Of a stretch of DNA of 61,069 nucleotides, positions 40,230 to 52,195 are shown in pieces. Positions within the stretch are counted from its first letter, which is position 1. Every line of letters begins with the position of its first letter. The notes beneath the pieces are model-generated. The model searched no databases. It saw only the letters and a program-made list of their open reading frames with translations, and had not been told where the DNA came from. The stretch is from positions 1 through 61,069 of the IMG/VR virus record IMGVR_UViG_3300035701_000033; one strand, given 5' to 3'. The stretch comes from a virus. Lineage: Duplodnaviria > Caudoviricetes. A program made the translations under genes and the position numbers.

Positions 40230-41072
40230 ATGAAACCTGAAGAATTGAAAGAAGTATTACGACTGCACAAACTATGGCTCGAAGGTAATCCAGAAGGTAA
40301 ATGCGCGGACTTTTCGGGCGCGAACTTGGCATATGCGAACTTATCGCACGTGAACTTGACAGACGCGAACTTGGCATATGCGAACTTATCGCACGTGAAC
40401 TTGACAGGCGCGGACTTGGCATATGCGGACTTGTCATATGCGATCTTGAGAGGCGCGAACTTGTCGCGGGTGAATTTGACAGGCGCGAACTTGAGAGACG
40501 CGATCTTGTCGCGGGTGAATTTGACAGACGCGAACTTGACAGACGCGAACTTGACAGACGCGAACTTGAGAGACGCGAACTTGACAGACGCGAACTTGAC
40601 ACGCGCGAACTTGACAGGCGCGAACTTGACAGACGCGAACTTGACAAACGCGGACTTGTCATATGCGAACTTGACAGGCGCGAACTTGAGAGACGCGATC
40701 TTGTCGCGGGTGAACTTGAGAGACGCGAAGCTCCCGAATTTTCAGATATGTCCAGAAGTAGGGAGTTTTCGAGCGTTTAAAAAACTGGCAAACGGCGATA
40801 TCGTAGAACTGGAGATACCGGCAAGAGCAAAACGTACAAGTTCGCTCGTTGGGCGAAAATGTAGGGCTGAATTTGCCAAGGTTATAACATTCTGGAATAC
40901 AGATCATTCAAAATCAAAATCAATAATTGGGAAGAGCACTTATATCAATAGTTTCAAATATGTTAAAGGCTCAGTAGTTCATTCGTATTCATACGACGAT
41001 GATATAAGAATTGAGTGTACGCACGGAATACACTTTTTCGTAACTTTTAAAGAAGCCGCAGAGTATTGCTGA
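40230..41072 (+). CDS. Pentapeptide-repeat protein 1 with DUF5758-like C-terminal domain
   Basis: A(N/D)Lxx repeats then FKK...LEIP..AKR...RKCRAEFAKV...ECTHGIHFF. Confidence 0.9.
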   Translation: MKPEELKEVLRLHKLWLEGNPEGKCADFSGANLAYANLSHVNLTDANLAYANLSHVNLTGADLAYADLSYAILRGANLSRVNLTGANLRDAILSRVNLTDANLTDANLTDANLRDANLTDANLTRANLTGANLTDANLTNADLSYANLTGANLRDAILSRVNLRDAKLPNFQICPEVGSFRAFKKLANGDIVELEIPARAKRTSSLVGRKCRAEFAKVITFWNTDHSKSKSIIGKSTYINSFKYVKGSVVHSYSYDDDIRIECTHGIHFFVTFKEAAEYC

Positions 41073-41746: not shown

Positions 41747-42352
41747 ATGAAACTTGAAGAATTGAAAGAAGTATTACGACTGCACAAACTATGGCTCGAA
41801 GGTAATCCAGAAGGTAAATGCGCAGACTTGTCATATGCGGACTTTTCGGGCGCGGACTTGTCAGACGCGGACTTTTCGGGCGCGATCTTGAGAGGCGCGA
41901 ACTTGACAGGCGCGAACTTGTCGCGGGTGAATTTGACAGGCGCGAACTTGAGAGACGCGATCTTGAGAGACGCGATCTTGTCGCGGGTGAATTTGACAGG
42001 CGCGAACTTGACAGGCGCGAACTTGAGAGACGCGATCTTGTCGCGGGTGAATTTGACAGACGCGAACTTGACAGACGCGAACTTGAGAGACGCGAACTTG
42101 ACAGACGCGAACTTGACACGCGCGGACTTGACAGGCGCGAACTTGACAGGCGCGAACTTGACAGACGCGAACTTGTCATATGCGGACTTGTCATATGCGA
42201 ACTTATCGCACGTGAACTTGTCATATGCGGACTTTTCGGGCGCGATCTTGACAGGCGCGAACTTGACAAACGCGAACTTGACACGCGCGAACTTAGATTA
42301 TGCTGCATGGCCTTTAAGGTGTAGTAGCGTAAATGTAAAAGGGGGAGCTTAA
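41747..42352 (+). CDS. Pentapeptide-repeat protein 2 (C-terminally truncated duplicate of copy 3)
   Basis: Same N-terminal leader; ends at duplication junction. Confidence 0.85.
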   Translation: MKLEELKEVLRLHKLWLEGNPEGKCADLSYADFSGADLSDADFSGAILRGANLTGANLSRVNLTGANLRDAILRDAILSRVNLTGANLTGANLRDAILSRVNLTDANLTDANLRDANLTDANLTRADLTGANLTGANLTDANLSYADLSYANLSHVNLSYADFSGAILTGANLTNANLTRANLDYAAWPLRCSSVNVKGGA

Positions 42353-42353
42353 A

Positions 42354-42956
42354 ATGAAACTTGAAGAATTGAAAGAAGTATTACGACTGCACAAACTATG
42401 GCTCGAAGGTAATCCAGAAGGTAAATGCGCAGACTTGTCATATGCAGACTTGTCATATGCGGACTTTTCGGGCGCGGACTTGGCATATGCGGACTTGGCA
42501 TATGCGGACTTGGCATATGCGGACTTTTCGGGCGCGATCTTGTCAGACGCGGACTTGTCAGACGCGAACTTGTCATATGCGGACTTTTCGGGCGCGAACT
42601 TGACAAACGCGGACTTGACAGGCGCGATCTTGACAGGCGCGATCTTGAGAGACGCGATCTTGACAGGCGCGAACTTGTCATATGCGGACTTTTCGGGCGC
42701 GAACTTGACAAACGCGGACTTGACAGGCGCGGACTTGACAGGCGCGAACTTGTCAGACGCGAACTTAGATTATGCTGCATGGCCTTTAAGGTGTAGTAGC
42801 GTAAATGTAAAAGTGGATAATCAAATAGCAGCGCAATTATTGTTTCATGCGTTCGCAGTTGCAGGAATAAATCCTACGGCTGAACAGATAAAATATATCC
42901 GAGCGTTTAGGCGTTTTGACGAGTGTGGCGGAGCAGATAGACTACTTAAAAAATAA
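42354..42956 (+). CDS. Pentapeptide-repeat protein 3
   Basis: Repeats then LDYAAWPLRC...AAQLLFHA C-terminal cap. Confidence 0.9.
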   Translation: MKLEELKEVLRLHKLWLEGNPEGKCADLSYADLSYADFSGADLAYADLAYADLAYADFSGAILSDADLSDANLSYADFSGANLTNADLTGAILTGAILRDAILTGANLSYADFSGANLTNADLTGADLTGANLSDANLDYAAWPLRCSSVNVKVDNQIAAQLLFHAFAVAGINPTAEQIKYIRAFRRFDECGGADRLLKK

Positions 42957-43296: not shown

Positions 43297-44001
43297 ATGA
43301 AACCTGAAGAATTGAAAGAAGTATTACGACTGCACAAACTATGGCTCGAAGGTAATCCAGAAGGTAAATGCGCGGACTTTTCGGGCGCGAACTTGACAGA
43401 CGCGAACTTGACAGACGCGAACTTGACAGACGCGAACTTGAGAGACGCGAACTTGACAGACGCGAACTTGACAGACGCGAACTTGAGAGACGCGAACTTG
43501 ACAGGCGCGAACTTGACAGACGCGAACTTGTCATATGCGGACTTGTCATATGCGAACTTATCGCACGTGAACTTCACAGACGCGAACTTGTCGCGGGTGA
43601 ATTTGACAGGCGCGAACTTGACAGGCGCGAACTTGACATGCGCGAACTTGAGAGACGCGAACTTGACAGGCGCGATCTTGAGAGACGCGATCTTGACAGG
43701 CGCGAACTTGAGAGACGCGAACTTGTCGCGGGTGAATTTGACAGACGCGAACTTGTCATATGCGGACTTGTCATATGCGAACTTATCGCACGTGAACTTC
43801 ACAGACGCGAACTTGTCGCGGGTGAATTTGACATGTGCGAACTTGACAGGCGCGAACTTCACAGACGCGAACTTTGCAGGCGCGGACTTGTCATATGCGG
43901 ACTTGACACGCGCGAACTTGTCAGACGCGGACTTGTCAGACGCGAACTTGTCGCGGGTGAATTTGACATGTGCGAACTTGACAGGCGTTATAACTAAATG
44001 A
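43297..44001 (+). CDS. Pentapeptide-repeat protein 4 (repeats only)
   Basis: Leader identical to copy 1, about 40 pentapeptides. Confidence 0.9.
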   Translation: MKPEELKEVLRLHKLWLEGNPEGKCADFSGANLTDANLTDANLTDANLRDANLTDANLTDANLRDANLTGANLTDANLSYADLSYANLSHVNFTDANLSRVNLTGANLTGANLTCANLRDANLTGAILRDAILTGANLRDANLSRVNLTDANLSYADLSYANLSHVNFTDANLSRVNLTCANLTGANFTDANFAGADLSYADLTRANLSDADLSDANLSRVNLTCANLTGVITK

Positions 44002-47951: not shown

Positions 47952-48720
47952 TGATTGGGCGAGAAAAATTAAAGACAAGAAGATTTAGTTTTTTATGTGG
48001 TATAGTCTATGGCATAGGGCTAGTGGCACTTTGGTGTTTACTTGTTCAAGCGTGCATGATATTCTTTCAAACAGTATTAGGGAGGTTATTCCTATGACCT
48101 CAACTGAATTAAAAGTAATGGATGATCTCATTAGTGCAGTCAAGTGTGAACTTCTTGGAATACATTGTACTGCTGATTGGGGCCCGAGGTTTGCCAATAC
48201 TATCCAGCGTTGTGAAGAGCTTATTGTTTCAGAACGGCGACGGCATATTGCAATGAGAGAAAAAGCTAATATCATTGAGATTCCACGAGTTGTTTAAAGG
48301 AGAAAGATATGAATGAGTACGAAAAAATCAGCACTATTTTGCGGGATGAAGCACTGAATAATGGGCGGTTTGCATTGCTGTATTCTCTTGCACTGGTTAT
48401 GGTCAATGGTTTGACCGGAGATTATATTTATACTAGCAATTCATTCGAAGGGCCAAACGCTGACATCTATTTCAGAATGAGTCAGGAGGCAGAGTAATGC
48501 AATCCAATGATATCATGAAAGCATTTTATGTCTCAGTAATGGTTCACGAAAAACAGCCAGAAGCCATATATCTTGGCCGTGATAACTTTGATCGGCTTCG
48601 AGTAGAGGTTAGGCTGGATCTCCGGGAAAAATGGGCAGGGCATACGCGATCTGGCCGCGCTGAGTTCAACGGCCTACCTATTTATATAGTGGACGAAGAT
48701 GAATTTCTCATGGTAATATA

Positions 48721-49800
48721 ATGCGACTCTTAACCATGGACTTTGAAACATTTTATGGAACTGGATACACTCTCAGTTCAATGACGAACGAGGAATATAT
48801 CCGGGACCCAAGATTTGAAATCATCATGTGTAGCTTCAAGATGGATGAGAATCCATGCTTCTGGGTTCCGGGTCCACAGGTCTGGTCGGTACTAGCCAAG
48901 ATACCGTGGCATGAGACTGCGGTGATTAGTCATCATTCACATTTTGACATGGCGATTCTTAACTGGATATATGGATATCGCCCTGCTTTTATTCTCGACA
49001 CGCTCCCGATGTTCCGGGCTCTATTTCCTGCAGAACGCGCATCGTTAAAAAATATGTGCGAGGTTCTGGGAATAGGAGCTAAAGGAACTGAGGTTGAGAA
49101 CGCGAGAGGTAAGCACTACAGGGATTTCTCCCCGCAGGAGTTAGCTCGGTATGGGTCATACTGCGTAAATGACACAGAGAGGACAAGAGAAGCGTTCGAC
49201 ATCATGAAGGTTGGTTATCCTCTTTCCGAGTTACAACTTAACGATATGATTACTCGACTGTTTACAGAACCAATGGTCGAATTAGATCGAGATCTACTTA
49301 TTCTTATGCGGGATGATGAGATCGAAGAGAAGCGTAGACTCATGGAGAAACTGAATGTTGATCGGTCTGTCATATCCTCGAATCCTCAGTTCGCTGCATT
49401 GTTGCTAGAGTGCGGGGTAGACCCGCCGAAGAAGATCAGTCCAGCATGGCGTAAGGCACATCCAGACGAAGACCCCGGTGAGGAACCTGTTGGACTTCTC
49501 CCGGACGGTATGAAGTCATGGGCCTATGCTCTGGCTAAGAACGACGAAGCTGCCAAGGAACTGGCCGCGAGTGAAGACGTGCTGATAAGTGCGCTTATGG
49601 AAGCGCGGTTCGGAATTAAGAGTACTATCAAACAGACACGATCCCAGCGGTTCATAGGCATAGCAGAACGAGGAACCTTCCCCATCTACCTGAAAGCCTA
49701 TGCTGCCCATACCGGACGGCTTGGTGGCGGGGATAAATCGAATGCTCAGAACTTAACCAAGAAGTGTAGTTACTGCGATGGAAATGGAGAGGTGCTATGA
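48721..49800 (+). CDS. polA: DNA polymerase family A, N-terminal part (3'-5' exonuclease and thumb)
   Basis: Exo motifs MDFET, HSHFD, YCVND; HTGRLGGGDKSNAQNL; ends CSYCDGNG. Confidence 0.9.
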   Translation: MRLLTMDFETFYGTGYTLSSMTNEEYIRDPRFEIIMCSFKMDENPCFWVPGPQVWSVLAKIPWHETAVISHHSHFDMAILNWIYGYRPAFILDTLPMFRALFPAERASLKNMCEVLGIGAKGTEVENARGKHYRDFSPQELARYGSYCVNDTERTREAFDIMKVGYPLSELQLNDMITRLFTEPMVELDRDLLILMRDDEIEEKRRLMEKLNVDRSVISSNPQFAALLLECGVDPPKKISPAWRKAHPDEDPGEEPVGLLPDGMKSWAYALAKNDEAAKELAASEDVLISALMEARFGIKSTIKQTRSQRFIGIAERGTFPIYLKAYAAHTGRLGGGDKSNAQNLTKKCSYCDGNGEVL

Positions 49801-50039
49801 AATACAGAGTGATTGAGATTGTAAAAAGATCAACGGTTGCACTTGATCGTTATTTTCAGATTGAACGACGGTATTCGTTTTGGCCATGGTGGTGTGTGAT
49901 GCGCAATGTAATTGGCCCAATAAGTTTTTATTCAAAGGACGCAGCAATCGGGTATATTAACCGTGAGATTCAGAATAAAGAATACGTAGAAGAGCACAAA
50001 AAAACACTGACAGAGACAAGGACTATTCATGAAGTGTGA
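49797..50039 (+). CDS. Hypothetical protein inserted between polymerase halves
   Basis: GGAGAGGTG RBS, ATGA overlap upstream, 11-nt overlap downstream; MKYRV...FQIERR..FWPWW. Confidence 0.7.
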   Translation: MKYRVIEIVKRSTVALDRYFQIERRYSFWPWWCVMRNVIGPISFYSKDAAIGYINREIQNKEYVEEHKKTLTETRTIHEV

Positions 50040-51021
50040 TCGTTGTGACGGTACAGGTATCTCAGCACTCAGACGTGCGATTATGGCACCTCCCGGCCAC
50101 GTCATAGTGGTACGCGACTTGTCGCAGATCGAAGCGCGGGTAAACTTCTGGATAGCTGAACAGCAGAGCATGGTCGATACCTATCGCCGGGGGGAGGATA
50201 CCTATTGTAAGATGGCCTCGACTATATTCGGTCGGCCTATTATAAAGAAAGAACATCCTCGGGAAAGATTTCTTGGAAAAACTACGGTCCTCGGTTGCGG
50301 GTACGGGCTCGGCTGGAAGAAGTTCCAAGGCATGTTACGAATAGGCATGTTGGGTGAGAAGGGTTTGATCCTCGGAGAAGAGATCTCTCAGGCACTGGGC
50401 GTATATCCAGAGCAGTTCCTTGAACGGCATAGAAAATATGTGGACGAGTCAATGCCACCGAACATTCCATATCCTATCCATGCCACGCACTGCGCGAATG
50501 CAGAGAGAATAATCAAGACCTTCCGGGATAACAATCCCATGTTGATTCAGTTCTGGAAGACCTGTCAGGAAGCACTCGGACATATACTGGCCGGGGATTA
50601 TGGCTGGAAGTTCGGGAATGGCGGCATCATCGAAACTTGTGCAGAAGGATTGCGATTGCCTAACGGCATGATAATGCGGTACGTCGAACTGAGGACCAAG
50701 AAAGAAGGAAAATACAATGAGTTCAGTATCCTGCGGGATAGAAAGAAAGGACAAAGGGAGAAGTTGTACGGCGGAAAAGTCGATGAGAATATCGTACAAG
50801 CGTTGGCACGAATCGTTATCACCGACGACATGCTCAGGATGCGCAAAGAGGGGATTCATGTCGTGCATCAAGTGCATGATGAGATCTTGGCTGTTTGTCC
50901 TGAGAATGAGGCTAAAGCTACGTATGAGCAGATGGGATTGGTAATGTCTAAAGCCCCGTCGTGGGCTCCAGACTTGCCCCTCGGATCAGAGGGTGGATGG
51001 GACAGGCGTTATATAAAATAA
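50029..51021 (+). CDS. polA: DNA polymerase family A, C-terminal catalytic part
   Basis: Motif A DLSQIEAR, motif B RFLGKTTVLGCGYG, ENIVQ, motif C VHDE; starts MKCDRCDGTG; AAGGA RBS. Confidence 0.92.
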   Translation: MKCDRCDGTGISALRRAIMAPPGHVIVVRDLSQIEARVNFWIAEQQSMVDTYRRGEDTYCKMASTIFGRPIIKKEHPRERFLGKTTVLGCGYGLGWKKFQGMLRIGMLGEKGLILGEEISQALGVYPEQFLERHRKYVDESMPPNIPYPIHATHCANAERIIKTFRDNNPMLIQFWKTCQEALGHILAGDYGWKFGNGGIIETCAEGLRLPNGMIMRYVELRTKKEGKYNEFSILRDRKKGQREKLYGGKVDENIVQALARIVITDDMLRMRKEGIHVVHQVHDEILAVCPENEAKATYEQMGLVMSKAPSWAPDLPLGSEGGWDRRYIK

Positions 51022-51024
51022 TTG

Positions 51025-51053
51025 TTGACAGCATGGATTAAAAGAAGTAGGGT
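51025..51053 (+). promoter_or_regulatory. Sigma70-like promoter
   Basis: TTGACA-17nt-TAGGGT. Confidence 0.5.
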
Positions 51054-51073
51054 AGTATTTAAAGGGGAAATAA

Positions 51074-52195
51074 ATGGCAACTATATTTGAAGGGTTTGCC
51101 CCAGAAGTACCTCGGACATGGGTATATATTCACCAAATGCCATTTCCGAAATTACTTACTACTAATGAGGCATTATGCAATCTTATTGGAATATTATATA
51201 CTGGTCCTGATAGGCGTTTTGACTATCATGATGAAATCGGGATGCGTAGTCTATGGTCTGCATGGCAGAAAGATATCCAGAAAGCAGAAGCAATGGGTAG
51301 TAAGTACAAGGTTCCAGATGTGGCAATGGACTACTTCCAAAAGACTAAACATCTCTCACGTCCGCCGAGATGTAGCGATACAAACATTCAGCAGACCGGA
51401 CCTATCGATGAATTATTGGTGGTTGATATTGAAGCATTTGTAAAGAAACATGCAGAGAATTCAGTTCCTGCGGTTATACTCGAAGAAAAGATTCAATCCG
51501 TTCCTGTTGTACCGGGGTTTAAACCTCCTAAATTTTCATGGTCTTATACTTCACTGGTTAATTTTGAAACTTGCCCATTGTCCTTTGCTGAACAGAGATA
51601 TTACAAGACAATCAAATTCATGGAAACCCCAGAGATTAAAGATGGCAATGTAGTGCATATTGGGTTGGAGAATTATCTAAAGTCCAAAGTTCGGATTGAT
51701 CGGATCACTGATTATACAAAATTTGCAGACGCTATTATCGCTGCATCTGAGGGCGGAGAACTACTGATCGAACAGGAATTGTGTATTAACGAAGGAATGC
51801 AAATGACAGGTTGGTTCGCTCCAGATGCATGGGGTCGAGCCAAATTGGACGTAGCGATTATCAAGGATGGAGTAGCCAAGATATATGATTGGAAAACTGG
51901 TAAAGAGAAGAAAGATGACGACCAGTTGGAAATCTTCTGCATCTTCTTGGCATTAGCCCGGAGAGATGTCCACACTTTTATCTCCAGATATATCTGGTTG
52001 AAGAATGGCAATGTATCTGCGCCTATTACCCTAACAAGAGCAGATCTATTGCCAGCGATAAAGACTCTGCTCGGACGTATTGCCAGATGCCGAGAAGCAT
52101 GGGATCATCAACTTTGGATGGCCAAGACTTCTGGACTCTGTAAGAAATATTGCGATGTCATGACCTGCGTACATAATGGTAAAAGAGAATGTTAA
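51074..52195 (+). CDS. PD-(D/E)XK Cas4/RecB-like exonuclease with N-terminal extension
   Basis: WSYTSL..FETCP, H, KLDV, DWKTGK and C-terminal CxxxCxxxxC cluster. Confidence 0.8.
   Translation: MATIFEGFAPEVPRTWVYIHQMPFPKLLTTNEALCNLIGILYTGPDRRFDYHDEIGMRSLWSAWQKDIQKAEAMGSKYKVPDVAMDYFQKTKHLSRPPRCSDTNIQQTGPIDELLVVDIEAFVKKHAENSVPAVILEEKIQSVPVVPGFKPPKFSWSYTSLVNFETCPLSFAEQRYYKTIKFMETPEIKDGNVVHIGLENYLKSKVRIDRITDYTKFADAIIAASEGGELLIEQELCINEGMQMTGWFAPDAWGRAKLDVAIIKDGVAKIYDWKTGKEKKDDDQLEIFCIFLALARRDVHTFISRYIWLKNGNVSAPITLTRADLLPAIKTLLGRIARCREAWDHQLWMAKTSGLCKKYCDVMTCVHNGKREC

Follow-up and report, generated by a model that had tools for sequence, protein, structure and literature searches.

A phage family A DNA polymerase encoded in two pieces, with half of a putative zinc finger on each side of the cut

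The virus genome IMGVR_UViG_3300035701_000033, a sediment-metagenome record of 61,069 bases that is rated 100% complete and was analysed over its whole length (hereafter the window), almost certainly encodes its family A DNA polymerase (PolA) as two separate chains that are cut inside a zinc-finger module. The polymerase gene is split, the cysteine half sites on the two sides of the split are conserved, fused relatives carry the finger intact, the cargo at the cut varies, and we saw no recoding signal. Judging from sequence comparisons, the two chains are probably reassembled with an inter-chain zinc clasp at the cut. In the mechanism that we propose, the phage would make its replicative polymerase as two polypeptides from one translationally coupled string of genes, with the cut located in a small four-cysteine zinc finger of the DnaJ type, within the linker that joins its two knuckles. 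In this clade the finger is inserted in a surface loop that follows the NxQN primer-binding motif and precedes motif A. The N-half would bring the exonuclease, the thumb and the first CxxC, and the C-half would bring the second CxxC and the three catalytic motifs. The halves would reassemble along the normal intramolecular polymerase interface, while C349 and C352 of the N-half and C3 and C6 of the C-half would bind one Zn(II) between the chains, tying the new C-terminus to the new N-terminus. Zinc would thus re-form the finger as a clasp at the cut, and may contribute to assembly.

The window has only one family A polymerase locus and no second PolA. The locus consists of three overlapping open reading frames (ORFs), all on the plus strand, with the following features (lengths in amino acids, aa, or nucleotides, nt):

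48721-49800, plus strand: N-half, 359 aa; 3'-5' exonuclease, thumb and palm up to NxQN, then half finger 1
49765-49788, plus strand: half finger 1, C349-S-Y-C352-D-G-N-G (CxxCxGxG), with the stop three residues on
49786-49792, plus strand: Shine-Dalgarno-like GGAGAGG, inside the finger codons and 4 nt ahead of the ORF80 ATG
49797-50039, plus strand: ORF80, an 80-aa cargo ORF that overlaps both polymerase ORFs
50018-50022, plus strand: Shine-Dalgarno-like AAGGA, 6 nt ahead of the C-half ATG
50029-51021, plus strand: C-half, 330 aa; half finger 2, then motifs A, B and C (palm and fingers)
50035-50058, plus strand: half finger 2, C3-D-R-C6-D-G-T-G (CxxCxGTG), at the start of the C-half

The N-half ends with NAQNLTKKCSYCDGNGEVL followed by a stop codon, and the C-half begins with MKCDRCDGTGISALRRAI. 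The ORF80 ATG overlaps the N-half stop (ATGA), and the final 11 nt of ORF80 overlap the start of the C-half. The sequence CxxCxGxG occurs twice among the 173 six-frame, ATG-initiated ORFs of at least 60 aa in the window, both times at the break, and a 7-nt direct repeat, GAAGTGT, which encodes K-C, is present at 49761-49767 and again at 50031-50037, 270 nt apart. Counts of internal promoter and terminator sites in the polymerase locus were not above those in shuffled sequences. An earlier note on this DNA, made from the letters alone, had described the split ends as NAQNLTKK-CSYCDGNG-EVL-stop (49765-49788) and MK-CDRCDGTG-ISALRRAI (50035-50058), the 80-aa ORF as coupled at both ends, and the halves as sharing a frame with in-frame stops between them, all of which is correct (the starts of the halves are 1308 = 3 x 436 nt apart). 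It had also credited each ORF with its own ribosome binding site; this holds for ORF80 (GGAGAGG) and the C-half (AAGGA) and not for the N-half, which is preceded only by a weak GGTAA and a TAATG overlap with the preceding ORF.

The assignment of both halves to one family A polymerase, also made in the earlier note, is borne out by profile searches. The phrog_17 profile is matched by the N-half at positions 670-988 and by the C-half at positions 994-1230, contiguously across the break, and because the profile positions run on from one half to the other, these represent one polymerase cut in two. The C-half matches PF00476 (E 2.5e-17, 63.3 bits against a cut-off of 34.3) and the N-half matches the phrog_403 exonuclease profile; the N-half alone has no Pfam match at E <=0.1, and its relatives carry PF01612. 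Invariant residues in the N-half alignment are D7 and E9, F75 and D76, Y147 and D151, N341, Q343 and N344, and C349 and C352, and those in the C-half alignment are D30, I34 and E35, R80, K84, Y92 and G93, and H283, D284 and E285. We take these to include the residues usually named as motifs A (D..QIE), B (R...K.......YG) and C (HDE) and the exonuclease acidic residues, all of which are present in the halves. Neither the N-half nor the C-half could by itself be a working polymerase.

The break falls at the N.QN...R point named in the earlier note, and fused relatives run through exactly there. In the fused polymerase of Pseudomonas phage KPP25 the counterparts of N-half residue 347 and C-half residue 12 are one codon apart, and that of Rhizobium phage RHph_TM3_14A reads NVQNMGRGSTLRSSLEAPPGY across the cut; since such relatives are continuous here, the last 11 residues of the N-half and the first 10 of the C-half are extra. 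When a finger-bearing relative is compared with the Klenow fragment, the TG of the second motif falls on a short acidic loop before R-R-I-R. The cut site is presumably the surface loop that leads from the primer-binding NxQN...R motif to motif A.

Searches of protein collections and scans of contig collections gave 360 related proteins and 235 loci, and we classified all 360 proteins by pattern, scoring as split N-halves those with a stop within 35 residues of NxQN. Counting the gene call from the window itself, CxxC or Cx4C is present in 12 of 12 split N-half tails, and C349 and C352 are invariant in all 11 aligned split N-halves. The tails vary in their other residues (examples are CGRCEGTGEMV, CTNEGCDGGKINDDA, CSECAGSGRI, CPACSGEGKI and CHHCGGEGKV) and come from proteins with 47-83% identity to the window; an additional short protein, P0122, on a 2.9-kb contig, has unrelated C-terminal residues and looks frameshifted. 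On the other side of the cut, all eight C-halves called from the first ATG start with M, 1-6 residues and CxxCxG(T/S)G[VI]S, as does the window C-half, and C3, C6, G8, T9 and G10 are invariant in the eight aligned C-halves. As in an interprotein zinc site, two cysteines come from each chain and are conserved on both sides (12 of 12 tails, 8 of 8 heads).

Another six C-half gene calls begin at a later methionine, the window's own call (P0123, 312 aa) among them. The recorded calls P0123, P0124 and P0126 begin at Met19 (MAPPGH...), 18 codons late, which drops window positions 50029-50082; late starts of this kind omit half finger 2, so that standard annotation hides the feature. Compared with the related locus L003, the window has 12 synonymous codon differences and no non-synonymous ones in the first 24 codons of its C-half, and because the differences are purely synonymous, the upstream ATG is the real C-half start and the half finger is under purifying selection.

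An intact finger is present in one chain, in the same loop, in ten proteins of 691-753 aa among the 14 long relatives fetched, and L084, L087 and L088, read from DNA, are further fused polymerases of this kind. The fused pattern is NxQNLxxx-CxxC or Cx4C, a linker of 1-40 aa, CxxCxG(T/S)G and [VK]SxLR, with a linker of 1-4 residues in P0243-P0246 and P0249, 10 residues in P0248, and about 25-40 residues in P0250-P0252 and P0254. The other 287 fused proteins have no cysteines in the loop. Since fused relatives with an intact finger exist, the finger is an ordinary intramolecular module, and the split forms are the same module cut in its linker. A linker that tolerates such changes in length may serve as a site where small genes are inserted and lost. 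Fingerless fused members are also found within the finger clade (four proteins and L150); the finger is dispensable in a continuous chain and its loss was never seen in a cut chain. Losses in fused and not in split forms fit a stronger need for the cysteines after cutting, although we note that the counts are small and not phylogenetically independent.

The cultured-phage collection yielded no isolate from the finger clade; its best full-length match to a finger-bearing relative has 30.8% identity, and its best matches to the window halves have 36% and 34% identity. Seven loci at 34-36% identity were recovered from the genome collection, none of them from the finger clade and none giving a host clue. 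Separately, the fused polymerase of an isolate, Pseudomonas phage Rollin (L001, 4100-4290), has about 50 inserted residues in this loop, none of them cysteine, and the loop therefore tolerates unrelated insertions.

Both halves are present in DNA at six loci, which are arranged as follows (identities are to the window):

Window: gap of 228 nt; cargo ORF80; halves in the same frame
L003 (82% identity): gap of 460 nt; cargo an 82-aa Cys-rich ORF and a 79-aa ORF; halves in different frames
L083 (79% identity): gap of 93 nt; cargo a 35-aa remnant of the Cys-rich ORF; halves in the same frame
L085 and L131 (near-identical): gap of 395 nt; cargo two unrelated ORFs of 60 and 63 aa; frames differ in L131
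L151: 8-nt overlap (ATGTCTGA); no cargo; halves in different frames

The gap in these loci ranges from -8 to 460 nt, and the cargo is unrelated between loci while the cysteines are always kept. Two further loci have different genes after the N-half: L086 (of the P0006-like lineage) has, in the region 873-1336, a 66-aa ORF and a calcineurin-like metallophosphoesterase (PF00149, E 8e-8) on a contig that stops ahead of any C-half, and L089 has a different ORF. ORF80 belongs to no Pfam or PHROG family, its sole match among 1.84 billion representatives is itself, and an Atlas search returned only unnamed small phage proteins; it weakly resembles (E 0.006) the 79-aa ORF that occupies the equivalent position in L003. 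GC content is 0.39 over window positions 49780-50019 (ORF80) and 0.45-0.55 in both polymerase halves, which fits a foreign insert. The window lacks the Cys-rich ORF, which has no family match and which, in both loci that have it, begins on the stop codon of the N-half (L003 5079-5327, 82 aa, MKTCSGCKHF...; L083 4123-4230, 35 aa, MKSCTGCKHL...). The earlier note had proposed searching homologues for fused versions with an intact finger and for different inserted genes. Both are found, in 10 of 14 long relatives plus L084, L087 and L088, and as varied or no cargo with the cysteines always kept, and both comparisons favour its proposal that the chains may reassemble through an inter-subunit zinc site that makes the break tolerable.

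We modelled the complex of the N-half and C-half, with alignments and one Zn, in three runs and with three controls. The interface score (ipSAE, interaction prediction score from aligned errors) was 0.86 in all three runs and 0.00 for the best control; a mark of 0.86 is reached by 58 of 80 solved complexes and by 2 of 110 mismatched pairs. The runs share at least 96% of contacts, and the predicted local distance difference test score (pLDDT) of the partner is at least 88. The modelled interface includes residues 345-352 and 354-359 of the N-half and 1-6 and 8-21 of the C-half, which correspond to both half fingers. The predicted complex, of the two-chain kind with zinc that the earlier note had proposed to model, shows a rebuilt, normal PolA with the half fingers side by side.

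To examine the history of the split we used trees of the two parts of the polymerase. The N-part tree has 35 chosen rows (12 split, 10 fused with the finger and 13 fused without), and all split and finger-bearing rows fall in one 26-row clade (support 100/99) together with four fingerless fused rows. The split label needs four changes on this tree, at least three of which are forced by well-supported branches, and an approximately unbiased (AU) test rejects a single split clade (difference in log-likelihood 139, p = 3e-6); another tree gave the same topology. The C-part tree, of 38 rows, unites the 25 finger-bearing ones in a single clade (93/98) and leaves the fingerless ones outside, and here too the split label needs four changes, at least two of them forced. 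Fused P0248 is nested among split forms in both trees; its neighbours are P0012 on the N-part side and P0127 and P0128 on the C-part side. P0012 and P0127 are both recorded from a 59,540-nt contig. Changes between fused and split forms are always at the same point of the polymerase. In our reading of the trees, the finger probably arose once and the one-chain or two-chain state switched at least twice, and probably more often, in directions that are not readable as there is no root inside the clade. Two fingerless fused proteins, P0253 and P0256, are inside the finger clade on the N-part tree, where P0253 is sister to P0248 (100/99), and outside it on the C-part tree (93/98), and at the junction they resemble the fingerless outgroup. 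The pattern points to recombination in or close to the finger loop of these two.

Several points weigh against the zinc clasp, or against the history just outlined. A high score for the complex is to be expected for the halves of any split polymerase from their likeness to solved single-chain PolA, and the model output gives neither Cys-Zn geometry nor affinity. An AlphaFold2 (AF2) model of fused P0245, built on a 10-row alignment, has a mean pLDDT of 78.4, with 64, 79 and 82 for the 10-residue blocks of the finger, and places no secondary structure in the finger. The Pfam family PF00684 (DnaJ_CXXCXGXG) is unmatched up to E 10 in five fused relatives, for whose fingers Anti-TRAP, at E 0.78, is the only related profile match. 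The fingerless fused members indicate that the polymerase fold does not require the finger. Of the 15 C-half rows, six were scored split solely from gene calls that start downstream of the finger, and the AU test on the C-part does not reject a single split origin (p = 0.058), so that the case for many independent splits rests mostly on the N-part, which recombination may affect. The sequencing runs listed as matching the sequence are two DNA runs, one of which may be the source, and no RNA run; the sequence is present only in the sediment metagenome from which it came.

The sharpest alternative for the cysteines is that the polymerase is a real two-subunit enzyme held together by its native interface alone, with the cysteines as leftovers and zinc adding little. 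The 186-192 predicted interface contacts are mostly far from the finger, fingerless fused relatives occur inside the clade, and other split phage enzymes assemble with no clasp known from the available review text (PMC2988022), all of which would agree with such an enzyme. Leftover motifs would be expected to decay, yet both cysteines and the glycines are kept in 12 of 12 tails and 8 of 8 heads at 47-83% identity, the first 24 C-half codons have 12 synonymous and no non-synonymous differences, and loss of the finger is seen in fused forms only; we consider this explanation rather unlikely. A second possibility is that the half fingers pair elsewhere, either in a same-chain homodimer resembling the Rad50 hook or with a Cys-rich cargo protein, and organise a higher-order replisome. 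Homodimeric sites built from CxxC plus CxxC are known, as described for Rad50 in the text available to us (PMC5093744), and a small Cys-rich gap ORF is present in two related loci (L003 and, shortened, L083). But the window, L131 and L151 have no Cys-rich ORF, fused relatives hold both knuckles in one chain only 1-40 residues apart, and the complex model sets the half fingers against each other, which makes partners other than the opposite half improbable. A stronger version, in which the inter-chain Zn(Cys)4 site would be a working switch that ties polymerase assembly to zinc supply and thiol redox, with the finger linker as a reusable landing pad, is in our view unlikely; if true, it would link genome replication to host condition and provide a natural metal-gated split polymerase in a clade that moves repeatedly between one-chain and two-chain forms.

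It is also conceivable that a fused polymerase is the true product, made through read-through, bypass, frameshifting, splicing of RNA or protein, or excision of DNA at the GAAGTGT repeat, with excision and bypass having been raised as the alternative in the earlier note. The halves in the window are in the same frame, the 7-nt repeat flanks the gap at a distance of 270 nt, and relatives often carry inteins a few residues upstream (8-20 from the cut). The halves are out of frame with each other in L003, L131 and L151, and because frames are the same in some loci and different in others, read-through, bypass and excision are excluded. Moreover, the gap varies from -8 to 460 nt and is filled with coupled ORFs, the repeat, although confirmed in the window, is missing in L003 and L083, and excision at it would leave a product with one CxxC, unlike the natural fused forms, which have two. 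An intein or split intein at the cut was rejected on finding no Hint family on the tail, head or ORF80 and no C-terminal HN; the extra head of the window C-half ends in TG, not HN, and extra ends of 11 and 10 residues are too short to splice. For group I or group II introns, an Rfam search (E <=1, 48500-51200) gave one chance-level small nucleolar RNA (snoRNA) match, within the N-half, and the room for an intron is small or nil in relatives (a 93-nt gap in L083, none in L151); the earlier note's statement that there is no intein or group I intron signature thus stands. A free-standing homing endonuclease was rejected as well, with no HNH, GIY-YIG or LAGLIDADG family in seven cargo ORFs from four loci, none of which has an intein family either. 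Taken together, these results make a fused product highly improbable. Still less credible is that the split is a pseudogene or an artefact of assembly or sequencing: the record is a single metagenomic contig, and Logan contigs of the likely source run matched one 151-nt piece at 49418-49568 and none across the junction, but independent contigs in several collections show this architecture again at 47-83% identity, with starts and cargo of their own, substitutions are mostly synonymous, and the record, rated 100% complete, contains no other PolA.

The polymerase locus is part of a replication module. An AAA ATPase is encoded upstream of it, and the genes downstream specify a PD-(D/E)XK nuclease, a helicase and a primase-polymerase-like protein. 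The PD-(D/E)XK nuclease (window 51074-52195) has a C-terminal cysteine cluster (C-x3-C-x4-C...C) and an extra Cys near residue 167, a pattern that resembles the iron-sulfur cluster of Cas4/AddB-type nucleases. Elsewhere in the window, between 40230 and 44001, four paralogous ORFs lie in a row (40230-41072, 41747-42352, 42354-42956 and 43297-44001), and the three that were scanned (40230-41072, 42354-42956 and 43297-44001) match the same repeat-rich phrog_923 and phrog_7713 and have weak tail-fibre matches. The polymerase genes of relatives are also interrupted by inteins, located after GRxGG 8-10 residues ahead of NxQN, after YYGAH in the N-half (one large intein), and after LGC at motif B in the C-half; across the three sites together the carriers are P0066, P0130, P0141, P0142 and L117; P0247, L085 and L131; and P0132, P0133, P0135, L084 and L151. 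Some of these intein-bearing genes are also split at the finger, which makes the polymerase a hot spot for interruptions of several kinds.

The sequence suggests a testable answer to how the pieces of split phage enzymes hold together, namely by a zinc finger cut in half, and the clade offers its own controls in polymerases that are fused with the finger, fused without it, and split with anything from none to several cargo genes. If zinc does clasp the halves, the polymerase would clearly exemplify how gene fission can turn an intramolecular metal site into an intermolecular one, a heterodimeric enzyme would join the few interprotein zinc sites that, according to the accessible text of one source, are well studied (PMC9569753), and the arrangement would provide a compact blueprint from nature for split polymerases that depend on a metal. 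On the practical side, the late C-half start chosen by gene callers conceals half of the feature from standard annotation.

The elements combined here are of known kinds, as split phage enzymes and interprotein zinc sites have both been described; we did not find a zinc-finger-split polymerase described in print, in a search of open-access text that did not extend to supplements or subscription journals. The nearest split enzymes are those of T4-like phages, where the accessible text of a review lists gene 43A/43B in Aeromonas phages 25 and 44RR, nrdA split by mobE in Aeh1, and T4 gp39/gp60 (PMC2988022). These likewise are essential phage enzymes in two reassembling polypeptides, with genes or untranslated sequence at the cut, but they are a family B polymerase, a ribonucleotide reductase and a topoisomerase, whereas the window enzyme is a family A polymerase. 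Their inserts are usually homing endonucleases, and that text describes no metal half sites, in contrast to the window, which has no endonuclease and has half of a putative zinc site on each side; the same review, in the part available, calls the assembly of split enzymes an open question (PMC2988022). LUZ24-like phages also have a family A polymerase divided over two genes, which are annotated as 'DNA polymerase part I / part II' and separated by small ORFs (PMC3890496). There the cut is at the boundary of exonuclease and polymerase (171 aa + 546 aa) and the accessible text reports no cysteine motifs, whereas the window cut is inside the polymerase domain. Polymerase inteins differ again, being carried by relatives 8-20 residues upstream of the cut and at motif B, while the window has no Hint domain.

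Among metal sites, the Rad50 zinc hook and the CD4/CD8-Lck zinc clasp have two cysteines per chain sharing one zinc, as set out in the available text of the sources (PMC5093744, PMC9569753, PMC12198760). They join separate proteins or two copies of one, whereas the window site would be a formerly intramolecular finger split by gene fission, and they have no sequence relation to the window half fingers. The DnaJ cysteine-rich domain (PF00684) and Anti-TRAP are closer in pattern, with CxxCxGxG spacing on both sides and adjacent repeats as in the fused relatives; the DnaJ domain has four repeats, while here there are two (for one zinc), the profile is unmatched, and there is no J domain or chaperone context. 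Lastly, HMO-2011-type phages have a family A polymerase with two inserted CXXCXGXG motifs, and the main text of the papers available to us, supplements aside, makes no mention of a split (PMC9038755, PMC6918029). HMO-2011 gp12, whose record is annotated with PF00684, and the window enzyme are both family A phage polymerases with two CxxCxGxG motifs, but the gp12 gene is fused where the window gene is split, and gp12 is a distant relative of the window polymerase. Its motifs are located about 140 residues upstream of NxQN (residues about 293-330, L236), and its loop between NxQN and motif A has no insert. As the 'partial DnaJ domain' of HMO-2011 is at another site, two-motif fingers entered family A polymerases at least twice, independently.

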